64,000 bases of DNA from a virus. How positions within the stretch are numbered: position 1 is the stretch's first letter; each line of letters starts with the position of its first letter. The notes under the pieces were generated by a model. The model made no database searches. It saw only the letters and a program-made list of their open reading frames with translations, and was not told where the DNA came from. The position numbers and the translations under genes were made by a program. The stretch covers positions 23,821-87,820 of the IMG/VR virus record IMGVR_UViG_3300009537_000002; one strand, given 5' to 3'. Below, piece after piece: positions 27,083-62,507 of this stretch.

Positions 27083-30000
27083 TTACATGAGCTTACTTGC
27101 GATCTCGTGTGGCGACAAGCGTGATCTGTTGTCTCTCAAGTTTACACTAGTATTTCTACCCATTCCAGCAAATCCAGATGCCAGGGCGGTGCCGTCTACA
27201 CCTGCCGGTGCTCTTGCTGCGACTCGAGCTCCACCTGATGGTGGACTCATTGAGAGTCTAACGTTCTGGTTTCTCATAACAAGAGGAGTAGTTGGTGAAC
27301 CGACATCCTTTGTACCTGGGTGTACATCTTCTGGCCTCATCCTATTGACGGCCTTACGTCGATTCATGTTTAGTCTAGCATCTGGGATCTTACCACGACC
27401 AGACCCTACTGTCTTTGGGGGGTCAGACAAGATGGCACCCAGCGCCAGTGTACCAGCAAACCCCAGACCGATAGCCTTATGGTGACGCAGTAGACCTGCA
27501 CCCAAAGCGCCCATCTTGTTAGTAGCAGTTGAATATGCAGTGGCCACCTTCTTCATCATACCAGGAGCTTCTTGCATACCCATGAAGGCTGTTCTTGCAG
27601 ACAGCTCTGCAATTTCTATCTGCTTAGCACGAGCACCACGACCAGCAAGTAGCTCTGCAGTACGAGTGAATCCTGTGCGGTCGGCTTCATTGAGTGAACG
27701 CATCATCTCTCGAGTCGCAGAGTGCACGTTGATACCTTGAATTTGCTGAGCCATTTTAGTACCAGTAGCACTAGAAATAGCCTTGGCACCTTCTGCATCT
27801 AGATGAACGGTGCCCTGCAACATAGCCTTGGCTACTGTATCGTCTTTGACGATGGTTGCAATATTGCCTTCAAGTGTCTTGGCATCTCTGCCCTGCATAG
27901 CATCTGTGATGCTCATCATGAGACCTTGGAGTCCACCTTCAGCAGCTTCCAAAGCCGACATATGCTTAGCAGAGATAGGAGCTTGTTCGAGCCACTCCAA
28001 CAGGAAACGAGCATCACTGGCAGCTGCACCCTGGCCAAACTTGGTGAGCGATCTCTTGGCTGCTGTCATTTCAAGTGACAGAGGAGCGATCCACTTCTGT
28101 CCGACTGACAACTTTTCCACCTCAGCCATCATCTGCTTGAGTGGAATGGTTTCAGCTCCAGTAGCAGCTTTACCAGCCTTGAAGAGCTGCATCCTTACCT
28201 GATGCTGCGTGTATCTGCGAGCGTACTCACTATCCTGTAGCATACTTGCTTTGCGAAGAGCTTCTTCGTTACGAGGACCCAACAAGAAAGTAGAATAGGC
28301 ATCAGCGTCCTTGTCACCTGCCAAGCCAACTAATGGACCAAGTGTCAATGTCTTCTCTTCGAAAGCTCCACCTACCTCAGTGGCTACACGGACGTTCTTG
28401 GTTATTTCGGGCAAGACTATGAGATTGGATCGGCCTTCGACCATGCGCATACGAACTGGCTGCATAGAGAATTCACCAAGCAGCGGGTGGCGTCCTAGCA
28501 TACCAGCGATCTCTCCACCTTTTTCAAACCTGGTCCTCATCGCCTCGAGTGCTTCAATGTCTCCCTTATAGAGACCTGTCTCAACCATTTCATTCCACAT
28601 GCCAAGGAAATTCTCCCTGGTGATACCAACAACATTAGCTTCACGGATGGCAGTGGCTGCACCACCCACTCGCTGTGCAGAGACACCGCGAAGAAAACGA
28701 GAGCCTAGAACCTTACCACGTGCAACAGCACCAATGCCTTTGCCAGCAGGCACAAATTCTCTACGTAGTATGTCTCTTTGGAACCCTAACTGGCGGGTGA
28801 GTTCTTCTTGAGAGATCAATCCTTCCTCTGCTTGGCCCACCTTGGCAGCGATGTCACCATAGATTTCAGACAACCGACCTCGTGAGGTGACACCTGCATG
28901 TGTTTCATAGGGACGTAACTGAGTCATAATGTCCATTCCTGGAACATAGATTTCCTGACCAGCTCCTCGGATGACACCACCACCGCGTTCTAGAAACTTC
29001 TGGAAGTTTTCGCCCTGTCTAAAGATAGCCGCACCAGCAGGAGCAGCAGTACCTGACATAGTAGCAAGAGTCTTCTGTAGCTCCTGGTGCGCAATGAGAG
29101 TTTCAGGAGAGGTAGCAGCCAGACGCTGCATGAGTTCTTCACTGACGTCTCCACCTGCTGTACCCAAAGCACCACCCTTAAGAATGTCGAACACACGAGG
29201 TTCAACAGAGCCAAGCCCACCGACATCCAACATTGGACCGCCATAAGCAAACTCTGGCAGACCCATCGCAGTGCCACGTTGAAGTGCCTCTTCAAAAGTA
29301 CCAAGCGCCTTACCACGCAATCCAGCACGAGCCAACATTGCAGACACAACACCACGTCCACCTTTTTCAGCTGTACCACCCATAACATATGGAACAGCAC
29401 CAAATGCTTCACCAAACTCACGCTCTGTGACGTCCATCATGCCAACAGCAAATTGCATTGCTCTTTCAGTAAACCTTCTGTGACTGAATGCTCCACCTTT
29501 GAATGCTTGAGCAGCAAACGCTTCACCTGGTGCTGCCATGAATCGTGCTTGAGCTCGAGTGAACGGAGCTCCGCGGCGCTCAAGAATCCCTTGAAGTGAG
29601 TCAACCATCTGTCTACGATGGAGAGCTCGATTTTTTCTGAGTTCATCCATGCTGATAATGATGTCTACATTACGATCATGAATACCAAGTTGTCTGAGTG
29701 CACCACCAAAAGCCTGTTCTTCTCTAAAGAGAGCTAGGGCTTTAGCACCACCAAACAACTTGCCGCCATGAGCAAACTGGTGACGGCGAAGAATTTCTAC
29801 AGAGACCTCTTCACCAGCAGCACGACGAACACCAGTGATAGCGGCACCCTCAGGTAAAGTGAATGGCTTGCCTTCAGGAGTGAGGCCGAGTACTTCTCCT
29901 CCTCTGATACCTCCACCAGCAATGTCTTCCCGAGCTCGAATAAGCTTCTGAGTCACAGATTCTTCGAAGATCATCTTGTCGCCTGTGCGAGCTCGAAACA

Positions 30001-31474
30001 AGGTTTCACCTTCGCCCATGGCCTGTTGTTGCATAAAGCTTTGTTCACCAATCATTAGCCTTGGATCTACATAAGCAGCCTTGAGTTTTGGACGGACAGC
30101 ATTGGAGTAGGCCAAGGCCTCACCTTCAGCTTGGACGGCACGATAGTATCCACTACCTTTCTGACCAAGAGCCTTCATGCTCTCTTCTGCGATTTGGAAT
30201 TCACGAAAGATCTGTTCTGGACGACGTGAATAGTCTACGGGACCAAGGGCATAGCGTTCCCATTCTGCCGTTGACAACATGCCTTCGGCTAAACCTTTCG
30301 GGCCTACACCACCACGAAGACCCAACTCTCTACCAGCGGCAGATCCCATAGCAACACGGATCTCATCGTCGGTCATTGCGCGGAAACCTGGACGATACTC
30401 GGCTCCACCTCTGCGAACACCCACAGGTGCGACCATCTCAACGGCCATCCCACGAAGTGCTTCACGTTGAGCCTGAGCAGCGGTGCGACTTTCGAGTATG
30501 TTGGCAGGAGTAGTTTCCAGTTCTCCAAAGATCCTTCCTCTCAGCTGCTTAATCGCACGCTCTACATCGCCTTGTGTTTTGAGTCGTCCACCAATTTCAG
30601 GAGCGATACCACGCTCAAGCTCCTGGAGAAACATTTCAGTACGACCGATACGCTGGAGTTTTCCTCCTTCGCCCATAACTACAAAGTCTGGAGCGATACG
30701 ACGTGTCTGTAGTGCCATGCCTTCAGCTATCATCCCACCTGATACCTGAGGCAATTGCACACGAACATCGCCAACACGAGTGCCTTCAAAGATCACGTTC
30801 CAGGCTCCCAACCCCTCACCTGCAAGTTCAGGCCGTGTGATACCGAACATCTGTCGGCCAGTTCCACCCATAGCTGCTTGAACACGTTCGATGCCAGACA
30901 TGAAAGGAGCAGGGATAGGAGTAGCCATTGCGATAGTTGCCTTTGGAGACAAACCTTGAATCTGGTTCACTCCCACAAAGTTGGGTAGACCAAATTGTGT
31001 GGCTTGGGCAGTGAGTGTTCCAACGTTTCTTTCGAAGCGCTGCCAAATACGACCTGCAGCTACAGAGGTTTGACCAGCCATTGTGGCCGAGATTGCCGAG
31101 CGAGCTTCCGCTGGGGTCATGTTCATGATGCCTTCGGTAAGACCCAGCATCTGCTTTCTTGTGAACGGATCGACAGACTGAGTTGCCCACGCCCAGGCTC
31201 TACGTTGAACATCGGTCCTGCTGTACTGCATGAATCGATTGACGTCTTCGATGCTAGGGATAGGTGGGCCGCGGCGTGATGCCTGCCTGCCAAGAGTACG
31301 CATGGCCTGGTCAATGCCAGCCTCGCGTGGTTGTTTCAGTGATCCTTCAACGTGGATACCTTTCAATGCAGCAGCAATACCCACAGTGAGAGGAGTAGCA
31401 GCAATAGCAGTTCTGAGTAGACTACCACCGCTACGATCCGGAAACTGAGGATCGCTATCTCTACGTTCAGCCAT
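27083..31474 (-). CDS. Putative single-chain two-barrel virion RNA polymerase at the tape-measure locus
   Basis: Motifs in order: GGKLFGGAK (K572/K578), VDIIIS, RGKVLGS, GRHP (R995), GDKDAD (D1054/D1056/D1058), QAPISAKH (Q1164-H1171). No Cys in 1463 aa. Confidence 0.78.
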   Translation of the reverse strand: MAERRDSDPQFPDRSGGSLLRTAIAATPLTVGIAAALKGIHVEGSLKQPREAGIDQAMRTLGRQASRRGPPIPSIEDVNRFMQYSRTDVQRRAWAWATQSVDPFTRKQMLGLTEGIMNMTPAEARSAISATMAGQTSVAAGRIWQRFERNVGTLTAQATQFGLPNFVGVNQIQGLSPKATIAMATPIPAPFMSGIERVQAAMGGTGRQMFGITRPELAGEGLGAWNVIFEGTRVGDVRVQLPQVSGGMIAEGMALQTRRIAPDFVVMGEGGKLQRIGRTEMFLQELERGIAPEIGGRLKTQGDVERAIKQLRGRIFGELETTPANILESRTAAQAQREALRGMAVEMVAPVGVRRGGAEYRPGFRAMTDDEIRVAMGSAAGRELGLRGGVGPKGLAEGMLSTAEWERYALGPVDYSRRPEQIFREFQIAEESMKALGQKGSGYYRAVQAEGEALAYSNAVRPKLKAAYVDPRLMIGEQSFMQQQAMGEGETLFRARTGDKMIFEESVTQKLIRAREDIAGGGIRGGEVLGLTPEGKPFTLPEGAAITGVRRAAGEEVSVEILRRHQFAHGGKLFGGAKALALFREEQAFGGALRQLGIHDRNVDIIISMDELRKNRALHRRQMVDSLQGILERRGAPFTRAQARFMAAPGEAFAAQAFKGGAFSHRRFTERAMQFAVGMMDVTEREFGEAFGAVPYVMGGTAEKGGRGVVSAMLARAGLRGKALGTFEEALQRGTAMGLPEFAYGGPMLDVGGLGSVEPRVFDILKGGALGTAGGDVSEELMQRLAATSPETLIAHQELQKTLATMSGTAAPAGAAIFRQGENFQKFLERGGGVIRGAGQEIYVPGMDIMTQLRPYETHAGVTSRGRLSEIYGDIAAKVGQAEEGLISQEELTRQLGFQRDILRREFVPAGKGIGAVARGKVLGSRFLRGVSAQRVGGAATAIREANVVGITRENFLGMWNEMVETGLYKGDIEALEAMRTRFEKGGEIAGMLGRHPLLGEFSMQPVRMRMVEGRSNLIVLPEITKNVRVATEVGGAFEEKTLTLGPLVGLAGDKDADAYSTFLLGPRNEEALRKASMLQDSEYARRYTQHQVRMQLFKAGKAATGAETIPLKQMMAEVEKLSVGQKWIAPLSLEMTAAKRSLTKFGQGAAASDARFLLEWLEQAPISAKHMSALEAAEGGLQGLMMSITDAMQGRDAKTLEGNIATIVKDDTVAKAMLQGTVHLDAEGAKAISSATGTKMAQQIQGINVHSATREMMRSLNEADRTGFTRTAELLAGRGARAKQIEIAELSARTAFMGMQEAPGMMKKVATAYSTATNKMGALGAGLLRHHKAIGLGFAGTLALGAILSDPPKTVGSGRGKIPDARLNMNRRKAVNRMRPEDVHPGTKDVGSPTTPLVMRNQNVRLSMSPPSGGARVAARAPAGVDGTALASGFAGMGRNTSVNLRDNRSRLSPHEIASKLM

Positions 31475-34400
31475 TATACCAATCCGTCTAGAGCAGCATC
31501 ATAGTCGACGTCTTGCTCAATGTCGATATCAACACCAGGGAAGTTCCTGTGGAACACACTGGCCCGAGCTCCTTGTGGAATTAGGAGTTCATCTATTCTA
31601 TCCTGCATTTCTCCTGGACTCAATTGCTCTGGGTTCATCAGAGGAGCAATAGCGGACTCGTTGATGAATGGTTTGTTCACCAACGCTTGTGCACGCGAAG
31701 GCCACAGGTCAAAGTCATGCATGTCTTCACCCATACTCTGCACCACCTTAAGCTTCACATCTTCCAGGTCAACAGACGGATGCCATCCTACCCAGTCATC
31801 ACCAGGCAACGGTACTTCAGAGAGCAGCTTAGTTCTACGGTACCAGTCTCCATAGTTCTCACCAGGTAGCTTGGTCGCTACATACTCAGCAAACAACTCT
31901 TCGTTGTTTGGGAAACCTTCTGATCGAGCTTCATCTCTGATTTGTTCCAGAATGATATCTGCCTCAGCGATCTGGTCTTCTGACAATAGTCCAGCCTTCT
32001 CTGCTTTCTCTACATCCTGTTTGAACTGTAGCTTCCAGCGAGCAATGTAGAGAGCCTTCTCATTGTCAGGAACGAGCTCGAGGATCTTTGATCTCTCTTC
32101 CACAGTATCAGCTGCAGCAAATGAATTGAAGTAGTCTCGCTCACGTCTGGGGAGAGAACGGAAGATGTGAGAGAAGTTGTATGTGAATGGATTGAGGCCA
32201 AACAACGTCTCGTTCTTCTTAGCTTCAAACTCTTTCACGGCAGCAGTGTCACCGCTCATCCTAGCCAGGTTCGAAAGTCTTGCTTGCTTTGTGTATTCTA
32301 GGACATCAAAGTACTGCTCGAGACCACGTCTTTCCTTGATGTGTTCGGGAATGGAATCGAAGCCCATCGACTCACCTACCTTGGTAAGGAACGGACGGAT
32401 GAAGTCACGCATTGGATGTGACCAGAACGCGTTCTCCGTACCATAGATCTGACTGTTCTCATAGTCTTCAATTGCTGTTCGTTGGTGAATGAGTTTGGCT
32501 GCGGGTGATACTGGCGTGAGGACATCCAAAGATGTCTCAGCGTTGTGAGCTAACATTTCCCAGTAGCCACCAAAGAACTTGGCAAAGACACCCTGCTCTG
32601 GTTTTTCTGACGCCTTGATCCTATTGAGTTCTGCTAGTACTCCTTTTGATTCATCCTTGTAGTAAGCTCCTTCATCGTCTATGTCCCCAGTAGGACTCAG
32701 GTATTCGTATTCTGCGAACCTTCTCTTGATCTTCCTTTCCTTGAGTTGAGCTTCGGTCATCTTGTAGATGCCTTCCTCATACTCGCTCCAAGTCTCTAAT
32801 TTCCTTTGGCTTCTGATGCTCTGCAGCATGGACTTGTACTTGTCACTGTACGGAGCCACATCAGCGAGGATCTTGTACCTGTGGATATCAGGGTAGTCTT
32901 CAGGTTTGAAGTTCTGGAGCTCTGGGAAGCGGGCTGCATAACCGGCCCCTGGGAGCCGTAGCTCGCCCTCCTGGACCTTTGTATAGGGATCTCCATGAAG
33001 GAAGTCAGGAGACTTCTCTCCGGGCCCTGGGAGCCACTCAGGCATCATGTTTCTAATTGGGTTGTACAGAGGGATCTGACGCCTTCTGTGAGGGTACAAA
33101 CGCCTCAAAGCCTCTGTGGTTCCCAGTCCACCACCGATTTCAAGGTCCCAATAGTCTCTCTCAGTGCCAAAAGCACGTCGAGCGGACTCCAAACGCATGG
33201 TTTGGTCGAAAAAGTCAGCAGATCCAGTCAGTGCTTCCTTGATAGAAGAGATGGTGAAACCTGGAAGACCGATCATTTCAGTCATTCTGTAGGCTTGTTC
33301 ACCTGCTGTTCCTGTCAGATTGAAGGGGGTTTCAGCACGTCCAGGTGGAAGCTCTCCCAGTTCAGCTGCACGGCGCTCGCCAAAGCCAGGAGCCATGGCC
33401 AATTGTTCGCCACCAGGCCCCATCCACTCCTCAGTGTGCATCAAGACAGGTGGCTTGATGAGCCTACCAATCGTGTTGGCGAGAAGAGGTCCGATAAATG
33501 GAACATCTTCAAATGGGAGACTGGTGATAGGGTATGGTCGTTCTTCGTAGAACTCTCTCTCGAGATCATACGTGAACTCTTGTCTCCACCACTGTTGTAA
33601 TGGAGTCGGCGGCTTGTCTCCCCAAATGGAGACTTCTTTTGACCTCTGTTGCATACGGGCATACCAGTGAGGTCTGTAGTACATGATTCGGTTGCCTTCC
33701 CATGGTGTGCGACCAAACTCCCACCATCTACCCTTTCTGATTGGTACTTCCTGTTGACCAGAGTAGATGCGTTCGAGCTCGTCTGGCCTAGTGGAAGGAA
33801 CCAGTGCACCAGGTAGGAAAGGAGCAATAAGTGCTAACCCGAGGCCTGCACCAGCGAGACCAGCCAGCTTGGTGGGTCCCATCTTGCCAACGAATGGATA
33901 AGCCTTATCTCCAAAGAGCCGACCAAAACGGCCCATCAGTCCCTCGGTGCCAAACTTAGTGATTTGCTCAGATGCCAGTGTACGTGCAGCAGCAGGACCA
34001 ATGCCCTTCGCATATTGCAATTGAGCCATCTTGCCTACTTGTGCTGCGTAGGAGATGCCAGCCGCGCCGAAGGCACCCATAATTGGGAATGCTAGAAGTC
34101 GAGATAGGTCGGTGCTACCAGGGGCTAGTCTTTCTTGTGCTTCACGGTATGCGTGAAGACCAGTAACTTCGGCCACGCTAGAGGCTAACTGATTAGCACC
34201 AGTCCAAATCGAAGCAAGTCCCGCAGTGAGTCCTTGGTTTAAAACAGTTTCATCAAAGACACTGGCCTCACGGAACATGTAGTCGAGTGATTGATAACCA
34301 AGAGCAAGTCCACCAGCTACAGCACCATACTTCCAAGCCAAACGGCCCAGCATTTGAGTGCCCGAACCATATGGGACAGCCAGTTGAATCCTTCTGCCGG

Positions 34401-35274
34401 TCAGGTTGTACAGCAGATCTTGAGCTCCACCGAACACCGTTCTAAACGGCTGCATTTCGAATGGTGCTTCAAGCAGTCGATTGAAACGAGAAACAAACTC
34501 AGTGCCAATGGCGCCAAGCTGTCTACCTGCATAACCCCACGGTGTTTGCGCTCCAATGATTTGACGATGGAACTTGCCTGTTGCTAGACCAAGTTCTTCT
34601 CCAAACATACGAGCGTCGCCAGCTGCCATACCGAAACGAGCTCCAGTGCCAAAGCCCATTGAACGTGCATAGCCTGAGCCAAGATGTTTACCAGCAATAG
34701 AACCTAAGTATGACTCGCTCTCTCTCAGGACAGGATCAGAAATAGGACTGATCATCGCACCTGCATAGCGCAGAGCAACGTCACCGGTCTGACCAAAGTA
34801 GAGACTGCCACCACGGAATGTTACACCTTCTTTGAGTACTCGAGCATGAGTACCTGGTGCATCACCTGTTAGCTGAGCAAGGTATCTTGCATATCCACGA
34901 CCTGCATCAGAACGAAGAAATGTTCCGGCAACAGAGAAGCCTTGTCGTGCCTGAGTGGTGAACTGAGAGAAGAAAGTAGAAGCCTGGAAGGTACGAAACA
35001 CACCACCCGGTGAGTACTCTTCGATAGCACGTAGACCACCAACATAGTAATCCCACATCCTCCTACCACCACCGACTGGGATGAAACCGCCTGCCAGTAT
35101 TCCACCAGCAACAGCTCCAGCAGTCAGCATGCCAGATGTTGGATGTGCCTCCTCATAGAAACCACTCGGTGGGCGGTTGGTCCACACATCTGGTTGCTGA
35201 CGCGGATCACCCATGGATGGCCCATAATAGGCACGTGTATCCGTGAGGCTAAATCTGTTGGGGTACCTTGGCAC
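31474..35274 (-). CDS. Tape-measure-like / ejection protein with hydrophobic segments
   Basis: 1266 aa directly after the tail chaperones; several Gly/Ala-rich hydrophobic stretches; no Cys. Confidence 0.6.
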   Translation of the reverse strand: MPRYPNRFSLTDTRAYYGPSMGDPRQQPDVWTNRPPSGFYEEAHPTSGMLTAGAVAGGILAGGFIPVGGGRRMWDYYVGGLRAIEEYSPGGVFRTFQASTFFSQFTTQARQGFSVAGTFLRSDAGRGYARYLAQLTGDAPGTHARVLKEGVTFRGGSLYFGQTGDVALRYAGAMISPISDPVLRESESYLGSIAGKHLGSGYARSMGFGTGARFGMAAGDARMFGEELGLATGKFHRQIIGAQTPWGYAGRQLGAIGTEFVSRFNRLLEAPFEMQPFRTVFGGAQDLLYNLTGRRIQLAVPYGSGTQMLGRLAWKYGAVAGGLALGYQSLDYMFREASVFDETVLNQGLTAGLASIWTGANQLASSVAEVTGLHAYREAQERLAPGSTDLSRLLAFPIMGAFGAAGISYAAQVGKMAQLQYAKGIGPAAARTLASEQITKFGTEGLMGRFGRLFGDKAYPFVGKMGPTKLAGLAGAGLGLALIAPFLPGALVPSTRPDELERIYSGQQEVPIRKGRWWEFGRTPWEGNRIMYYRPHWYARMQQRSKEVSIWGDKPPTPLQQWWRQEFTYDLEREFYEERPYPITSLPFEDVPFIGPLLANTIGRLIKPPVLMHTEEWMGPGGEQLAMAPGFGERRAAELGELPPGRAETPFNLTGTAGEQAYRMTEMIGLPGFTISSIKEALTGSADFFDQTMRLESARRAFGTERDYWDLEIGGGLGTTEALRRLYPHRRRQIPLYNPIRNMMPEWLPGPGEKSPDFLHGDPYTKVQEGELRLPGAGYAARFPELQNFKPEDYPDIHRYKILADVAPYSDKYKSMLQSIRSQRKLETWSEYEEGIYKMTEAQLKERKIKRRFAEYEYLSPTGDIDDEGAYYKDESKGVLAELNRIKASEKPEQGVFAKFFGGYWEMLAHNAETSLDVLTPVSPAAKLIHQRTAIEDYENSQIYGTENAFWSHPMRDFIRPFLTKVGESMGFDSIPEHIKERRGLEQYFDVLEYTKQARLSNLARMSGDTAAVKEFEAKKNETLFGLNPFTYNFSHIFRSLPRRERDYFNSFAAADTVEERSKILELVPDNEKALYIARWKLQFKQDVEKAEKAGLLSEDQIAEADIILEQIRDEARSEGFPNNEELFAEYVATKLPGENYGDWYRRTKLLSEVPLPGDDWVGWHPSVDLEDVKLKVVQSMGEDMHDFDLWPSRAQALVNKPFINESAIAPLMNPEQLSPGEMQDRIDELLIPQGARASVFHRNFPGVDIDIEQDVDYDAALDGLV

Positions 35275-36317
35275 TATCTACGTCGGCGGGCTGCTTTCCT
35301 TTCTTTACGCTTTCTGGCTTCTTCGCGAACCTTGAGTAACTTAGGCAGCTCTTCCTTTGCTGCGTCTAAAGCTTTTTGTGCACGATCGACATTGGCGAGT
35401 CTGTTCTTCTCCATGCGCTCGAGTGCAGCAGCCTTCCTTTCCTCCGGTGTGAGAATTTTGAGTTCTTTACCTTCTCTCAAATCTTCTAGATATCCTTCAT
35501 AAACTTCAGCCGTCTCACCAGTCTTAATGATCTGTTCTACCGCATCGCCACCAATGAAAGTTTGATGTTCTCGGATATCAGCCTTACTGATGATTGTACG
35601 CTCTTCGGGGGCAATTGAAAGTGGTGGTGGCTTTGCATCACCAGCCAGCTCTGCCTGACGACCCATGATCTGTTCACGTGCAGCTGTTCTAGATTGCTTG
35701 ACAGAATCTGGCACTGTAATGCCCTGCTGCTCATAGTAACGATCCATCATCTCAGAGTTCTCTTGTCTTCTCTTGGCTCGTTCTGCTTCTGCATCAACTT
35801 GAGCCTCAGCAGCTGCTTCTGGGTGATCAAAGTGTAGAGGCTCAGTAATAATGCCAGTCTGCAACATCTTTCTCTCACCCATTGCCACCCTGAGCATCAG
35901 CGTAGAATAGTCCATCTCGTAGACTTCTTCTGGCTTATACGCAGGAAAAGCCTGGCACACAAAATTAACCAAGTCGTTAAGAATCTTAGTGGCAGCAGTA
36001 CGGTTGAAGTCCATCACCTGGTTGAGCTCTTCAACGTTAGATGGACCAGAGTAGGACAAAATTGTGGCGACTACTGTGGCAACAATACCCGCCTTTAGTT
36101 GATTGATGCCCTTAACTAGAGCTGTGTCGAGTACACACTTCTTGAAAATCTCATCCTCCAGATAAGCCGGTGGATGTGCGCCCAAAGCAAGCGCGTCTTG
36201 ATGTTCAATAAATTCCCCCATAGAGAGAGGACGCCATGGGATGATCTGGCCTGTTGGTAATCTGGTTGCAAAGGCATCGCCGTGCTCCTCTCTCAGATAG
36301 AGCAACTGTTCTTGCAT
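35274..36317 (-). CDS. Tail assembly chaperone 2 (with charged C-terminal extension)
   Basis: Position between tube and tape-measure genes. LREEHG...WRPLSMGEF...EDEIFKKCVL is paralogous to 36319..36801. Confidence 0.6.
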   Translation of the reverse strand: MQEQLLYLREEHGDAFATRLPTGQIIPWRPLSMGEFIEHQDALALGAHPPAYLEDEIFKKCVLDTALVKGINQLKAGIVATVVATILSYSGPSNVEELNQVMDFNRTAATKILNDLVNFVCQAFPAYKPEEVYEMDYSTLMLRVAMGERKMLQTGIITEPLHFDHPEAAAEAQVDAEAERAKRRQENSEMMDRYYEQQGITVPDSVKQSRTAAREQIMGRQAELAGDAKPPPLSIAPEERTIISKADIREHQTFIGGDAVEQIIKTGETAEVYEGYLEDLREGKELKILTPEERKAAALERMEKNRLANVDRAQKALDAAKEELPKLLKVREEARKRKERKAARRRR

Positions 36318-36318
36318 G

Positions 36319-36801
36319 TTAGAGCTTGACTACAAACTGAGACGCATAAGCAGGATTGACAAAGTTAGACTGCTGCAGGATCTGCTCGTGCAGAGTGCTC
36401 ATGCTTCCTGCCTTTTTCTCTAGGGCTTCCAAACCCGGAGGAGATCCCCAAAGAACACAGTTCTCGACAATCTTCTGTTCGACGTCGAAGCTGGTCATTG
36501 GATTGCCCTGCTGTTGTGATTGGGCAATGTACATTTGGAGATTAACGAACTCTTCTCGGGTAATGGGTCTGAAAATAAAGATCTCTGTTTCTCCTAGCGG
36601 AGAACACAGCACTTCACCAAACTCCTGCTTCCACTTCTCAATAGCAGCGTCGTCAGGTGCGCCAGAGAACGTCTGAAGGATTTCCCCCAGCGTCTTTTCC
36701 TTTGGTTCTTCTTGTGTCTCTTCTGGCTCTGCTTTCTGCTCTGGTTCTATTGGCTCTGGTGGTCTCGAGAGATCCATCTCGGCCTTCTTTTCATCAGTCA
36801 T
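36319..36801 (-). CDS. Tail assembly chaperone 1
   Basis: IEKWKQEFGEV...FIFRPITREEF...EQKIVENCVLW; GGAGG RBS. Confidence 0.65.
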   Translation of the reverse strand: MTDEKKAEMDLSRPPEPIEPEQKAEPEETQEEPKEKTLGEILQTFSGAPDDAAIEKWKQEFGEVLCSPLGETEIFIFRPITREEFVNLQMYIAQSQQQGNPMTSFDVEQKIVENCVLWGSPPGLEALEKKAGSMSTLHEQILQQSNFVNPAYASQFVVKL

Positions 36802-36811
36802 GATACCTCCA

Positions 36812-37384
36812 TTAGATCAATGTTCTTGCTATGAATGTATATTGCTCCTGAAGCCTTTGTAGATCAAGGAAGTTATTGCTAACTTCCTGTTCATAGCTAG
36901 TCTTGCCAATATGACAACTTTTACACAATAGTTGGCAATTGTCGATACTTCCTGTTCCGCCAATACATACAGGAATGATGTGATCAAATTCGCCTTTTTG
37001 AAAGAGGCCTTCACGGCAAATATTACACTTGTCTTCCTGGCCAAGCCTAACTGCTTTCATTGCGATTGCGCTAAACCTGTTTTTTCGATGCTTGATTTGA
37101 GACCTATCAGCAACATATCTAGGGTGGTTCTTGCCAGAGGCTCTAAAAATGGCTGGATCATTTTTATTGAACTGGTGGCGATAAGGACCACTAGCGATGT
37201 TTTCGATATTCTTTTTTTGAATTTTCTCTAGGTACTCAGAGTGTTTATAGAGTCCGAGTCTCCTCGCTTTGATTCTAGTGGCAGGTAGAGAACGATTTAA
37301 GGTCTTAGCAACAACACTGTCAGAAGTCGTAGGAAAAATACATTTGAGAGTTTCGATTTCAAAATCCGTCCATTTAGAAGCCAT
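36812..37384 (-). mobile_element. Free-standing HNH homing endonuclease
   Basis: CNIC...FDHIIPVCIGGTGSIDNCQLLCKSCH; N-terminal HTH/Myb-like KWTDFEIETL...ARRLGL; AT-rich (20/60 GC in line 37201). Confidence 0.85.
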
Positions 37385-38238
37385 TAGATTAGTGTCCTGG
37401 CAATGAAGGTGTATTGTTCCTGGATAGGAAGTCCGTCAATCTGTATTTGCTTAGACTTACCAAGGATATAGACATTCCTAATACGTTCGATCGTATGGTT
37501 GGCGTAGTCGTCACCGGCAAAATCACCAAAGGTTACGTACAAGTCGAATGGGTTGAGCCTATTGTCGTCCGCCCGGCGATCTTCTTGATCTAGCTGGGCT
37601 GGACTCTTTCTCCAAAGGGCGTTTTCAAAGGCTTCAAAGCGATTCTCTGCGCGTCCAACAGATCTCTCTTCTGGATCTGTAGCAGCACGGAACCTCTGAG
37701 TAGAGGCAAAACCACCCAAGTTGGCACCAAGAGAATTAGCAGCAAAGAAGTCTCGGAAGTCTTCCTCGATCCTAGCCTGTTGATCTCCTTCTTGTTGCCT
37801 ACGTGCCAAGTCTAGGAGGAACTGGTTTCGTTCAAATACAGATGTTTCACCATTGACGATCTGTTCGATGTTCTGTCTCTCAGCATCACCAGGTCGGCCG
37901 CCCACGTCTTTGACATTGTCAAATGGACCCTGGGTCCTAGCAGTCAGAGATGTCTTGTTGCGATGAAGTTTTCGATAGCGATCCAAGATTAACCACAGGT
38001 AGCCAGCTTCTTTGAAGTTGACTGTGAACGTGCCGGTAACCAAGATGTGACCTTCGGATACATCGTCGAACAAAGTAGAAGCATACCCGTAGATTGGAGA
38101 ACGAGATTGCGTGTATCCGTACGCCAAGGTGGTGACTTCATCTACCCAGACGTCACCAATGTATAGTGATACCTGAGCACCAGAGAAGTACTCAACGTTA
38201 TAGACACCACGACGTACTACATTTGCTTCCTGTCCCAT
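37384..38238 (-). CDS. Tail tube-like protein (paralog 3; tube initiator/baseplate-proximal)
   Basis: YFSGAQVSLYIGDVWVDEVTTLAY...SPIYGY...VTGTFTVNF aligns with the major tube protein. Confidence 0.7.
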   Translation of the reverse strand: MGQEANVVRRGVYNVEYFSGAQVSLYIGDVWVDEVTTLAYGYTQSRSPIYGYASTLFDDVSEGHILVTGTFTVNFKEAGYLWLILDRYRKLHRNKTSLTARTQGPFDNVKDVGGRPGDAERQNIEQIVNGETSVFERNQFLLDLARRQQEGDQQARIEEDFRDFFAANSLGANLGGFASTQRFRAATDPEERSVGRAENRFEAFENALWRKSPAQLDQEDRRADDNRLNPFDLYVTFGDFAGDDYANHTIERIRNVYILGKSKQIQIDGLPIQEQYTFIARTLI

Positions 38239-39467
38239 TATCTATTCGTTAGCCTCCTGCGAACTCCCAGTCTAAGCAGGTGTTCGTTGTACGCATCATT
38301 GTCGAACAACAGACTAGAACCAGTGAGGTCTTTGTCATCCTTGTCGTTGAACATGCCACGCTGCAAGCGACTAAGTCTGAATCTACCACGAGATGTCATG
38401 ATGTCAGCATCGCGACACACATAGTTCATTGTTCCTTCCGACAATAGGTCCTCAATAGAGAACACCTTACCGTCAGTGACAAACTCAACTCCGTAGAGTC
38501 TCAAGTCAGACAAAGCACCATATTCATTGGCAAAGACTAGGGTAAGATCGATTGGAGGTAGCTGGTCAGGAAGGAATGTAGATAGTTCGGCATCACGTTC
38601 TCCATAGGTTCTCGAGTTGCCCATGCGGCGAATCAGATCAGCCAGAGCGTGCTCGTTGAAGATAGTAAAGATCATTGACCCACCAATGGTACGGGTGCCG
38701 CGTGTATATCCCTTGGCATATGAATGCCCAAGGGCCCTAACAGCATTCTTTTCTCGGAAGCTTTGTAGGGAGATAGTTTGTAGAGTACCCAACACTACCG
38801 TGTCACTAGATCGACCATCTCCCGCCGCGCCGATACGCTCAAGATTGTCGATCCTGTCTGTGAACTCAGTAACCTTGGCTCCGTAGAGTTGTCTGAGAGT
38901 GAAGGCTTGGCGCTTCATTCTGGCTGTACCGATAAAGCTAATATTCCCGCCCTTCAGAATGTTGCCGATCAACAGGTTCACAGCCTTATCGTTCTCTGCG
39001 CCACCAGGAAATGGAAGTCCCGTTGCAGCAATAAAGAGCTCTCGTCTCTGTGCATAGTCTGACACAAGAGAAGGATCACCGAACCCTTGCTGCTGTGCCA
39101 GGCCATCTAAACCACCGTTGATGAGATTGTCACACCCATCTACTACCAACTGAGCCTCTGAGCGCTGTGAGTTCAACTGCTCAAGCTTCTCTTCTAACCA
39201 ATTATTGCTATCATAGAGGTGTGCAACAACCTTGAGGTCAACACCCGAGAAGGATGAACTCAGGAAGTTGATACTGGCCTCAGCGCCTTGCTGGGCAGGT
39301 AACGTTTTGAAAGCTTCGTCGACAGCTAGCCTAGTCTCTGCCAATTCGAAAATAGCAGGATCATCTAGGTCAATTCTGTTTTCTGCATTGCCAGGTCCTG
39401 GCGTAATCGGCTTTCTAGCAACGACCCGCTCACCAGATCTACTGGTTCTACGAATGTTAGCAGTCAT
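38238..39467 (-). CDS. Tail tube-like protein with ~130 aa insertion (paralog 2)
   Basis: SFSGVDLKVV-[insert]-LGTLQTISLQSFREKNAVRALG...RGTRTIGGSMIF aligns with the tube protein. Confidence 0.75.
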   Translation of the reverse strand: MTANIRRTSRSGERVVARKPITPGPGNAENRIDLDDPAIFELAETRLAVDEAFKTLPAQQGAEASINFLSSSFSGVDLKVVAHLYDSNNWLEEKLEQLNSQRSEAQLVVDGCDNLINGGLDGLAQQQGFGDPSLVSDYAQRRELFIAATGLPFPGGAENDKAVNLLIGNILKGGNISFIGTARMKRQAFTLRQLYGAKVTEFTDRIDNLERIGAAGDGRSSDTVVLGTLQTISLQSFREKNAVRALGHSYAKGYTRGTRTIGGSMIFTIFNEHALADLIRRMGNSRTYGERDAELSTFLPDQLPPIDLTLVFANEYGALSDLRLYGVEFVTDGKVFSIEDLLSEGTMNYVCRDADIMTSRGRFRLSRLQRGMFNDKDDKDLTGSSLLFDNDAYNEHLLRLGVRRRLTNR

Positions 39468-39483
39468 TGTTTAGTTCCTTGTG

Positions 39484-39505
39484 AAAAGGGGCCCTTCCGG
39501 GCCCC
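39484..39505 (-). terminator. Intrinsic terminator after the major tail tube gene
   Basis: Minus strand GGGGCCC-GGAA-GGGCCCC-UUUU: perfect 7 bp stem with a GNRA loop. Confidence 0.8.
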
Positions 39506-56246: not shown

Positions 56247-56855
56247 CTATGCTCCAGTTTTGAGTTCGTTGAGCACTTCCATTGGAACCAGGACTTGCTC
56301 TTCCTCCGATTCTACTATATCTGAGAGCTGTGTCGATAGTGTGTCCACTTGTACAGCATCAACAGGCTGCATGTCCTCTGTGCCTTTAGCCTGGACAACC
56401 TCGGCCCTGTGGGCACTGAGGCGCTTTTGGAAGAATTCAATAAGTTTCTTCCTGTTCTTCCCTTCTTGCTCGAGCTCCAAAAGACGTCGTAGACTTCCCA
56501 GTCGCAACGTGGCCGCTTCCTTCTTCACGGATGGAATTGTACCCTTCAATATTCCTCTGAGAATCTTGACTGTCTTGTCAATGGTATCTTCCATGTTCTG
56601 AGCAACATCAGTTGGCCTGATAGGAATGACATTTGCAGGCATGGGTGTATCTGGAGTCTCCACATCCAAAAGTTTCTGGATGTCTTCTTTGTTCTCCAGC
56701 TTCAACACACTTCGACGGATGTTGTAGACAAACTGCTTCTTGAGCTCATCATTGAGTTCTTCTACTGCTACGTTGTGTTCCGGGGTCCCAAACGTGAAAC
56801 TGTAGGGACCAATAGTTAAAAATGGGGACTTGTCGGTATTGAGTTCAACTTTCAT
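56247..56855 (-). CDS. Post-capsid protein with LLELEQEGKNRKKLI helical motif (possible packaging or head-completion factor)
   Basis: True start is probably MKVELNT at 56855 with AGGAG RBS; the ORF-track extension upstream is HNH debris. Confidence 0.55.
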   Translation of the reverse strand: MKVELNTDKSPFLTIGPYSFTFGTPEHNVAVEELNDELKKQFVYNIRRSVLKLENKEDIQKLLDVETPDTPMPANVIPIRPTDVAQNMEDTIDKTVKILRGILKGTIPSVKKEAATLRLGSLRRLLELEQEGKNRKKLIEFFQKRLSAHRAEVVQAKGTEDMQPVDAVQVDTLSTQLSDIVESEEEQVLVPMEVLNELKTGA

Positions 56856-56879
56856 AACATCTCCTAGTATACATTTGTT

Positions 56880-57040
56880 GGTGGACAAAAAGAAGGGCTG
56901 ACCCTCCCAGTCCTTGTTGATCTGAGTCTTCAGTCTGTGGCAGTTTGCACATAGAACCTGGAGGTTCTCAGGCCGATTGTTCTTATGATTCCCGTCAATG
57001 TCCCGGGATTGACGTGACAATATTTACATACGGGTCTCAT
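56880..57040 (-). pseudogene. Internally deleted HNH endonuclease remnant
   Basis: ATG at 57040 reads MRPVCKYCHVNP; a different frame reads DIDGNHKNNRPENLQVLCANCHRLKT; the junction is at CCCGGG. Confidence 0.75.
56886..56907 (-). terminator. Intrinsic terminator-like hairpin (second copy)
   Basis: GGAGGG-UCAG-CCCUUC-UUUUU. Confidence 0.55.
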
Positions 57041-61886: not shown

Positions 61887-62507
61887 TTACTTCCCCTTGC
61901 GTCGTGCATTAGACCATAGTTTACACTTTCTTTCATGGCGTGGACCTTGATTTTGGTAATACATTAATTCGCCAAGCTTTACGGAGTCATAATGCGCGTA
62001 TTGAATTTTGCCAGCATTTCCTGCTGGATGAACCGTTCGTTTTGGAAAACCCCACTGTTCTAGTTCACGTGACAGCTGAGTTACAAATGGAACGGAGCCA
62101 ATAATTTGTGATCTTAATGTTTTGTTTGTTCTCAAAGGATTCTTCTGATTCCAGAAAGACCCATCTCCATCAAAATATCCACGAACAAAATCTGGAAATA
62201 CGTGAGGGTCAATGTGGGGTAACTCAAGCGTCAAACTTTTTTTATTGCGGATTCCAAGAAATCGCAAATTTCGCACCCATTGTTCGGAAAAAATATCCAT
62301 CCGACATGTATTCTCTTTTGTTTTGTGAATATTACCCTCAAAGTCAGAAATGTCTTTAACCTGTTTCAAAAGATGATCATCTGCCATGTGAAAAGACACA
62401 GCATGACGATTCTTTAATATGTAACCATCTGCACTAATCAATCCAACCAGCCATGCGGCCTCAGGAGACATGTTTTGCAAAAAGTTGTGATTAACTTTAC
62501 TTCCCAT
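61887..62507 (-). mobile_element. Double-motif LAGLIDADG homing endonuclease
   Basis: WLVGLISADG and FVRGYFDGDG; AT-rich (20/60 GC in line 62281); likely ATG at 62507 overlapping the upstream stop. Confidence 0.88.

Follow-up and report, generated by a model that had tools for sequence, protein, structure and literature searches.

Results and Discussion

A tail gene end that occurs twice

In the window (the whole stretch of 64,000 nucleotides analysed here), a tail-tube gene of an uncultured myophage and the HNH endonuclease gene directly behind it end in the same 12 codons, spelled differently. We consider it likely that the nuclease belongs to a homing cassette that needs no splicing, a unit at 36851-37422 (minus strand) that homes, brings along a replacement end which restores the tube gene, and leaves the native end stranded behind the nuclease.

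The 284-aa ORF at 37384-38238 and the 190-aa ORF at 36812-37384, both on the minus strand, have the common C-terminus QEQYTFIARTLI-stop of 12 residues. At the DNA level this is a direct repeat of 42 nt (37381-37422 and 36809-36850) with 81% identity and a spacing of 572 bp, the longest direct repeat within 35500-39500. We refer to the upstream copy (37384..37422, minus strand), the present functional end of the tube gene, as U, and to the downstream copy (36812..36850, minus strand), which forms the last 12 residues of the HNH protein in frame and gives it its stop, as R. U and R differ at 8 of 39 nt, in 7 codons, and all 8 differences are synonymous, just as a sequence-only reading of this DNA had noted; the same reading was right about the HNH ORF but set its start one base off, at 36811 and not 36812. 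Among the other neighbouring ORF pairs of the 103.6-kb genome, stop-anchored 10-residue ends were never more than 6/10 alike. An assembly artefact is ruled out, since U and R differ and the same layout recurs in independent samples.

The host gene encodes a tail-tube paralog

The host gene (37384..38238, minus strand) is the third of three paralogs downstream of the tail sheath, and its AF2 model has a tube fold with a large helical insertion. Foldseek and VIA-align matched it to the tubes of phage 812, phiCD508 and PVC (Z 10.3-10.9, with phiCD508 at 10.9), and tblastn linked it to ORF142 of 0305phi8-36 and to a protein annotated as tail tube in Bacillus phage KLEB27-3. The tail module, with its sheath and three tube paralogs, is 0305phi8-36-like, although the identity of the host gene to these distant homologues is just 24-43% and its phage is uncultured. 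The PHROG label ‘major head protein’ was dropped, the fold being that of a contractile tail tube. In the model the last 12 residues form the final beta-strand (strand 272-280, pLDDT of the block 94-95), which agrees with the earlier placement of the insertion at the 3' end of a tail gene. Since this strand holds two aromatic residues, Y276 and F278, that are invariant in 36 homologues, loss of the last 12 residues would probably break the fold, and the gene is presumably essential.

Behind R, at 36319..36810 (minus strand), come a native spacer with GGAGG and a gene of 160 aa, probably a tail assembly chaperone judging from position alone, which in empty alleles follow the tube gene directly. 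Beyond the chaperone-like pair, the window holds a pair of very large, Gly/Ala-rich genes (1266 and 1463 aa; 27083-35274, minus strand) in tape-measure position. The large gene after that pair has intein and/or LAGLIDADG Pfam matches in two relatives (L152, 6374-8849; L070, 5466-5942), and the window's copy of it (31474-35274) is shorter than theirs. Extra short tube-like paralogs occur in the tail operons of L070 (3450-3905) and L010 (about 505-918 nt past the tube stop).

The insert is filled by an HNH nuclease

The 190-aa ORF (36812..37384, minus strand) was assigned from Pfam and PHROG HNH matches, an invariant motif and a structural model. It matches PF01844 with E 1.2e-8 and 35.4 bits against a cut-off of 21.4, and consists of an N-terminal three-helix domain (about residues 5-47), a linker and an HNH domain with two CxxC pairs (120-162). 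In 15 HNH homologues C120, C123, H135, N149, C154, C157 and H158 are invariant and D134 is nearly so. Judged by its sequence, the protein has the HNH domain, the catalytic His and Asn and the metal-binding His of an HNH (His-Me finger) nuclease, while the three-helix domain of the model is a putative DNA-binding domain. McrA and the HNH domain of Cap5 are the top structural matches of the model, both weak, and Foldseek returned nothing at E<=0.001.

The HNH ORF spans the whole insert, from the host stop as far as the second copy, and its GC content is 0.40 against 0.48-0.52 in the adjoining genes. The host frame is complete without splicing. An Rfam search of 36000-38500 gave no match at E<=1, in line with the earlier claim that the element is intron-free. 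No self-splicing RNA or intein surrounds the nuclease, which is thus not a homing endonuclease borne by a group I intron or an intein. Scans for promoters and terminators returned about as many hits as chance would.

Occupied and empty loci

The HNH family was traced to DNA in 12 distinct loci, namely the window and 11 other loci of uncultured myophages (L018, L048, L049, L066, L067, L068, L070, L102 (=L069), L153, L154 and L156). In all 12 the gene lies directly 3' of the tube paralog and/or directly 5' of the chaperone-like gene. The C-terminal duplication around the HNH gene, with the host frame intact, is present in the window and in L049, L066, L067, L102, L153, L154 and L156; the 5' end of L048, an inverted-repeat chimera, was left out. 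By contrast, the HNH gene is missing from 57 distinct relatives with a canonical tube end, which bears out the earlier view that the element is an insertion, and in nearly all of these empty loci for which there is downstream DNA the 160-aa gene comes straight after the tube gene. The absence from 57 relatives, the repeat spacing of 572 and the low GC content of the HNH gene together delimit the putative mobile unit (36851..37422, minus strand) as 572 bp made up of U and the HNH body, itself lacking a stop codon. When viral contigs were scanned with a degenerate DNA pattern that described the HNH/remnant junction, nothing matched, and HNH-profile scans of viral and genome contigs returned mostly unrelated HNH domains.

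In L094, one of the loci counted as empty for this family, the stretch directly 3' of the tube paralog is occupied by an unrelated, nuclease-like ORF (about 220 codons), and L007, L008 and L082 have ORFs of 98-113 aa there. These unrelated inserts mark the 3' boundary of the tube paralog as an insertion hotspot.

On a host tree of 64 host proteins, from which the last 12 residues had been left out, 9 occupied rows could be placed, and these need 8 gains or losses (shuffled mean 8.7). Eight changes for nine occupied loci imply repeated invasion or loss, in a count that carries no direction between the two. The HNH tree, poorly resolved (1 starred branch in 12), broadly tracks the host clades, and HNH proteins from distant hosts share 39-48% identity, compared with 30-37% for the full-length tubes. 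These sequence relationships fit a nuclease that has long accompanied its hosts, invading and being lost in cycles. As is characteristic of homing genes, the element occupies one fixed site, is optional there, with empty alleles in relatives, is patchy on the host tree and has degenerating copies.

The stranded copy is the native one

If U is a replacement, relatives without the nuclease should resemble R, a check that the sequence-only reading had proposed. Run on starred sister pairs, it favours R in three. Between the window and the empty locus L152, 6 of the 7 discriminating codons are nearer R and 1 is nearer U (P=0.012 given L152 codon usage; 29/36 nt match for R, 25/36 for U), and the spacer and GGAGG after R are also like the empty allele of L152. 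Between L066 and the empty L020, the codons fall 7 for R and 0 for U (P=0.0035), and in L102 against L101, which have about 78% DNA identity, R matches at 24/24 nt and U at 18/24, with 3/3 silent codons for R. The more distant comparison of L066 with L019 is neutral, 3 to 3. The combined P is about 3e-4 for the three pairs and 1e-3 with the neutral one included. This match of sister empties to R identifies R as the displaced native end and U as the replacement.

The nearest empty allele to the window is 71% identical in amino acids, with silent sites near-saturated. The duplicated 12-mer of the window occurs in 0/119 other homologues, and L066, L067 and L156 each have their own matching peptide pair. 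U encodes the lineage-specific peptide of its own host, as might be expected if the donor was related or the cassette has long been resident; no donor of the replacement end was found.

Recoding, translation signals and a candidate target

That the replacement end is ‘recoded’, as was originally proposed, is for the most part not upheld. Over seven loci, U and R differ in 44 of 72 comparable codons, where 41.6 would be expected at full saturation (P=0.32), and 48-60% of silent codons in the tube gene already differ between the window and L152. Much of the ‘recoding’ is therefore ordinary synonymous divergence between two phage lineages. What does stand is an excess confined to the window's subfamily, in which 33/46 codons differ between the copies (P=0.04). 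It is marked over codons 2-9, where 26/30 differ against 17.3 expected (post hoc, P=6e-4), in a direction that flips between loci. AT3 bias by position over the last 12 codons of the empty alleles was not above background (all |z|<1.5), and thus no DNA-level element was found in the native end.

Part of the spelling of U probably serves the nuclease. The Arg codon AGG of U gives an AGGA (37395..37398, minus strand) 10 nt before the HNH ATG, which is present in 5/5 subfamily U copies but only 8/38 empty alleles with Arg (Fisher P=0.0013). Likewise, the HNH ATG overlaps the tube stop as TAATG, always so in the replacements of the subfamily but in 1/57 empties. From these sequences, AGGA and TAATG are probably the ribosome-binding site of the nuclease and the means of its translational coupling. 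A TAGC in R (36828..36831, minus strand) is found in 4/4 intact R copies of the subfamily and 0/4 paired U copies, and may form part of the recognition site, for which it is a weak candidate chosen post hoc. As a universal target core it was rejected, since the U of L018 keeps TAGC and the distant L156 has the pattern reversed.

How intact the stranded end is

Within each of three loci (the window, L066 and L067) U and R encode one and the same peptide, which differs from locus to locus; over the three, codon differences between U and R number 24 silent and 0 non-silent. This sets a limit of <0.10 substitutions per site on the neutral decay of R, whereas silent sites are near saturation. The lack of amino-acid changes against saturated silent sites can perceivably have two explanations. 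First, U and R may each have evolved as a working allele in a genome of its own until the two recently came together. Second, R may be selected as a protein, a reading weakened by the decay series of R among the loci. R is intact and in frame in the window, L066 and L067, but intact and out of frame in L049; a stop interrupts it in L018, five of its codons are gone in L048, L070 lacks it, and in L068 it has probably decayed. Two features proposed from the window therefore hold there but not as a rule: the fusion of the displaced end to the nuclease, whose reading frame is lost in at least three relatives, and the restriction of differences to silent ones, as the copies of several relatives also differ in amino acids. 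The simplest account, we infer, is that R is the right-hand homology arm, renewed from the recipient at each homing event.

A proposed homing cycle and its alternatives

In the model that we propose, the cassette consists of the replacement last 12 tube codons followed by the HNH gene, and its insertion point is immediately ahead of the Gln codon that stands 12th from the end. HNH would be translated by coupling to the tube stop, with U bringing both its ribosome-binding site and its start overlap. Upon co-infection, the nuclease would nick or cut the empty allele of a relative at or near the junction, and repair would copy U and HNH, with the tube gene as the left arm and the stranded end plus the next gene as the right arm. 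The last strand of the tube would thus be restored, and the recipient's own end would be left behind the nuclease, supplying the HNH stop. The occupied allele would be immune, because its replacement has the wrong bases and its stranded end the wrong upstream flank. Renewal of R from a working allele at each homing event would also explain why it is free of amino-acid changes here, with decay setting in once homing stops.

It is rather unlikely that we are dealing instead with a free-standing endonuclease in the style of T4, with a distant cut site, for which the duplicated end would be an entry footprint, passively renewed as the nearest right-hand homology in co-conversion. The T4 seg and mob enzymes (‘intronless homing’) indeed cut hundreds to thousands of bp from their own genes (PMC2988022), so the target need not be at the junction; moreover, the overall difference between U and R is no more than saturation predicts, and the TAGC candidate is inconsistent across loci. 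However, the subfamily excess over codons 2-9, flipping in direction, together with a change of the conserved Ala codon itself in three distant U copies, argues for selection at the junction.

There is still less reason to favour one ancient insertion passed on vertically, with empty loci arising from U-R recombination that deletes HNH and leaves an R-like end. Empties would then match R as well, the HNH and host trees are broadly congruent, and the count of changes has no direction. Yet vertical descent gives no account of an R that lacks amino-acid changes amid saturated silent sites while tracking the peptide of each host, and the 57 empties would take many separate losses.

We think it improbable, too, and somewhat more so, that the fused 12 residues are functional in themselves, as a copy of the last tube beta-strand by which the nuclease would dock on the tube or be loaded into the tail, with selection keeping the identity. 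Such a working tag would bind tube subunits and be carried in or on the virion, and selection would keep its DNA spelling unlike the working end of the gene, a scenario to which we give the same slight credence. The identity of the peptide to the host's own variant in three loci, reached through silent differences alone, would be expected of a tag, as would an R that is in frame in 7/12 loci. Against it, at least four or five loci have lost R, have it truncated or have it out of frame, its length varies from 7 to 13 residues, and in the HNH model its residues are helical and of low confidence (pLDDT 43-52); an element without its own stop also accounts for the in-frame reading. Plain target-site duplication at insertion followed by drift of both copies, although the repeats directly flank the insert, is largely refuted and hardly credible, as drift of a freed copy would bring mostly amino-acid changes, the chance that 8 random substitutions are silent throughout is P about 5e-6, and the silent pattern recurs in L066 and L067.

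Relation to known systems

The enzymes of fungal mitochondrial mORFs are of the GIY-YIG or LAGLIDADG families; the window element works like an mORF without belonging to the mORF families, and its setting is a myophage tail operon, not fungal mitochondria. Such gene hybrids are known from atp6 of Allomyces macrogynus, atp6, atp9, cox2 and nad3 of Glomus sp., atp9 of Rhizopus and cox2 of Mortierella (PMC3630166), which also cites mobility as having been shown for the Allomyces atp6 element; C-terminal duplications around endonuclease ORFs are also described in PMC6279837. Like the cassette that we favour, they combine a host gene core, an inserted C-terminus, an endonuclease ORF and a displaced native C-terminus without splicing, and their native copy is nearer the empty allele of relatives than the inserted one is (PMC3630166). 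The design itself is thus not new. Unlike them, the element described here sits in a bacteriophage structural gene with an HNH enzyme for which homing would be the likely mode of spread, replaces 12 codons as against 17-79 in Glomus (PMC3630166), and has a nuclease that appears translationally coupled to the host stop and is fused in frame to the displaced end.

With the T4 seg and mob genes the element shares its phage setting, the lack of an intron or intein, optional presence among relatives, a place adjoining conserved genes, an HNH catalytic domain as in MobA and MobE, and an apparent lack of promoters. The T4-type genes, however, are intergenic with remote cut sites, or else interrupt a gene, as do Aeh1 mobE in nrdA and T4 mobA in gene 60 (PMC2988022), whereas the present element went inside a coding end that is mended by a second copy, and its domain order is reversed, with HNH C-terminal. 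The HNH gene is now formally intergenic, yet flanked by a duplicated coding end. According to a survey (PMC10448857), phage homing genes cluster near essential and structural genes; its searched passages make no mention of replaced gene ends. In the literature searched, which included few subscription papers within reach, we found no published phage case of the design.

Several further inserts were noted in this genome and its relatives. A LAGLIDADG-like ORF of low GC (0.40) lies between two head-module genes at 61887-62507 (minus strand) of the window. It is bracketed by a perfect 9-nt repeat (62497-62505 and 61887-61895), which includes the stop of the upstream gene and the two codons before it; both ORFs consequently end GK-stop, and this is possibly a miniature of the same replaced-end design. 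After the probable major capsid gene there is what remains of a small HNH motif, frameshifted (window 56247-57020, minus strand), which shares its frame with the beginning of the following gene. Outside the window, at 92231-92935 (minus strand) of genome C1, a second intact-looking HNH-type ORF overlaps the end of a 685-aa gene, and in L001, 477-1115 nt past the tube stop, a TAATG-coupled, GIY-YIG-like ORF of 212 aa lies between two chaperone-like genes; no duplicated end was seen at either.

For annotation, these findings call for caution, as such nucleases end in peptides borrowed from structural proteins. The loci also provide paired candidate alleles, sensitive and resistant, which makes the target of an uncharacterised HNH family directly testable, and all 12 together form a readable life cycle of fresh, frameshifted, deleted and lost copies. 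More broadly, the layout illustrates a way for a homing nuclease to settle in the conserved end of a virion gene that involves neither intron nor intein and leaves the protein in one piece.
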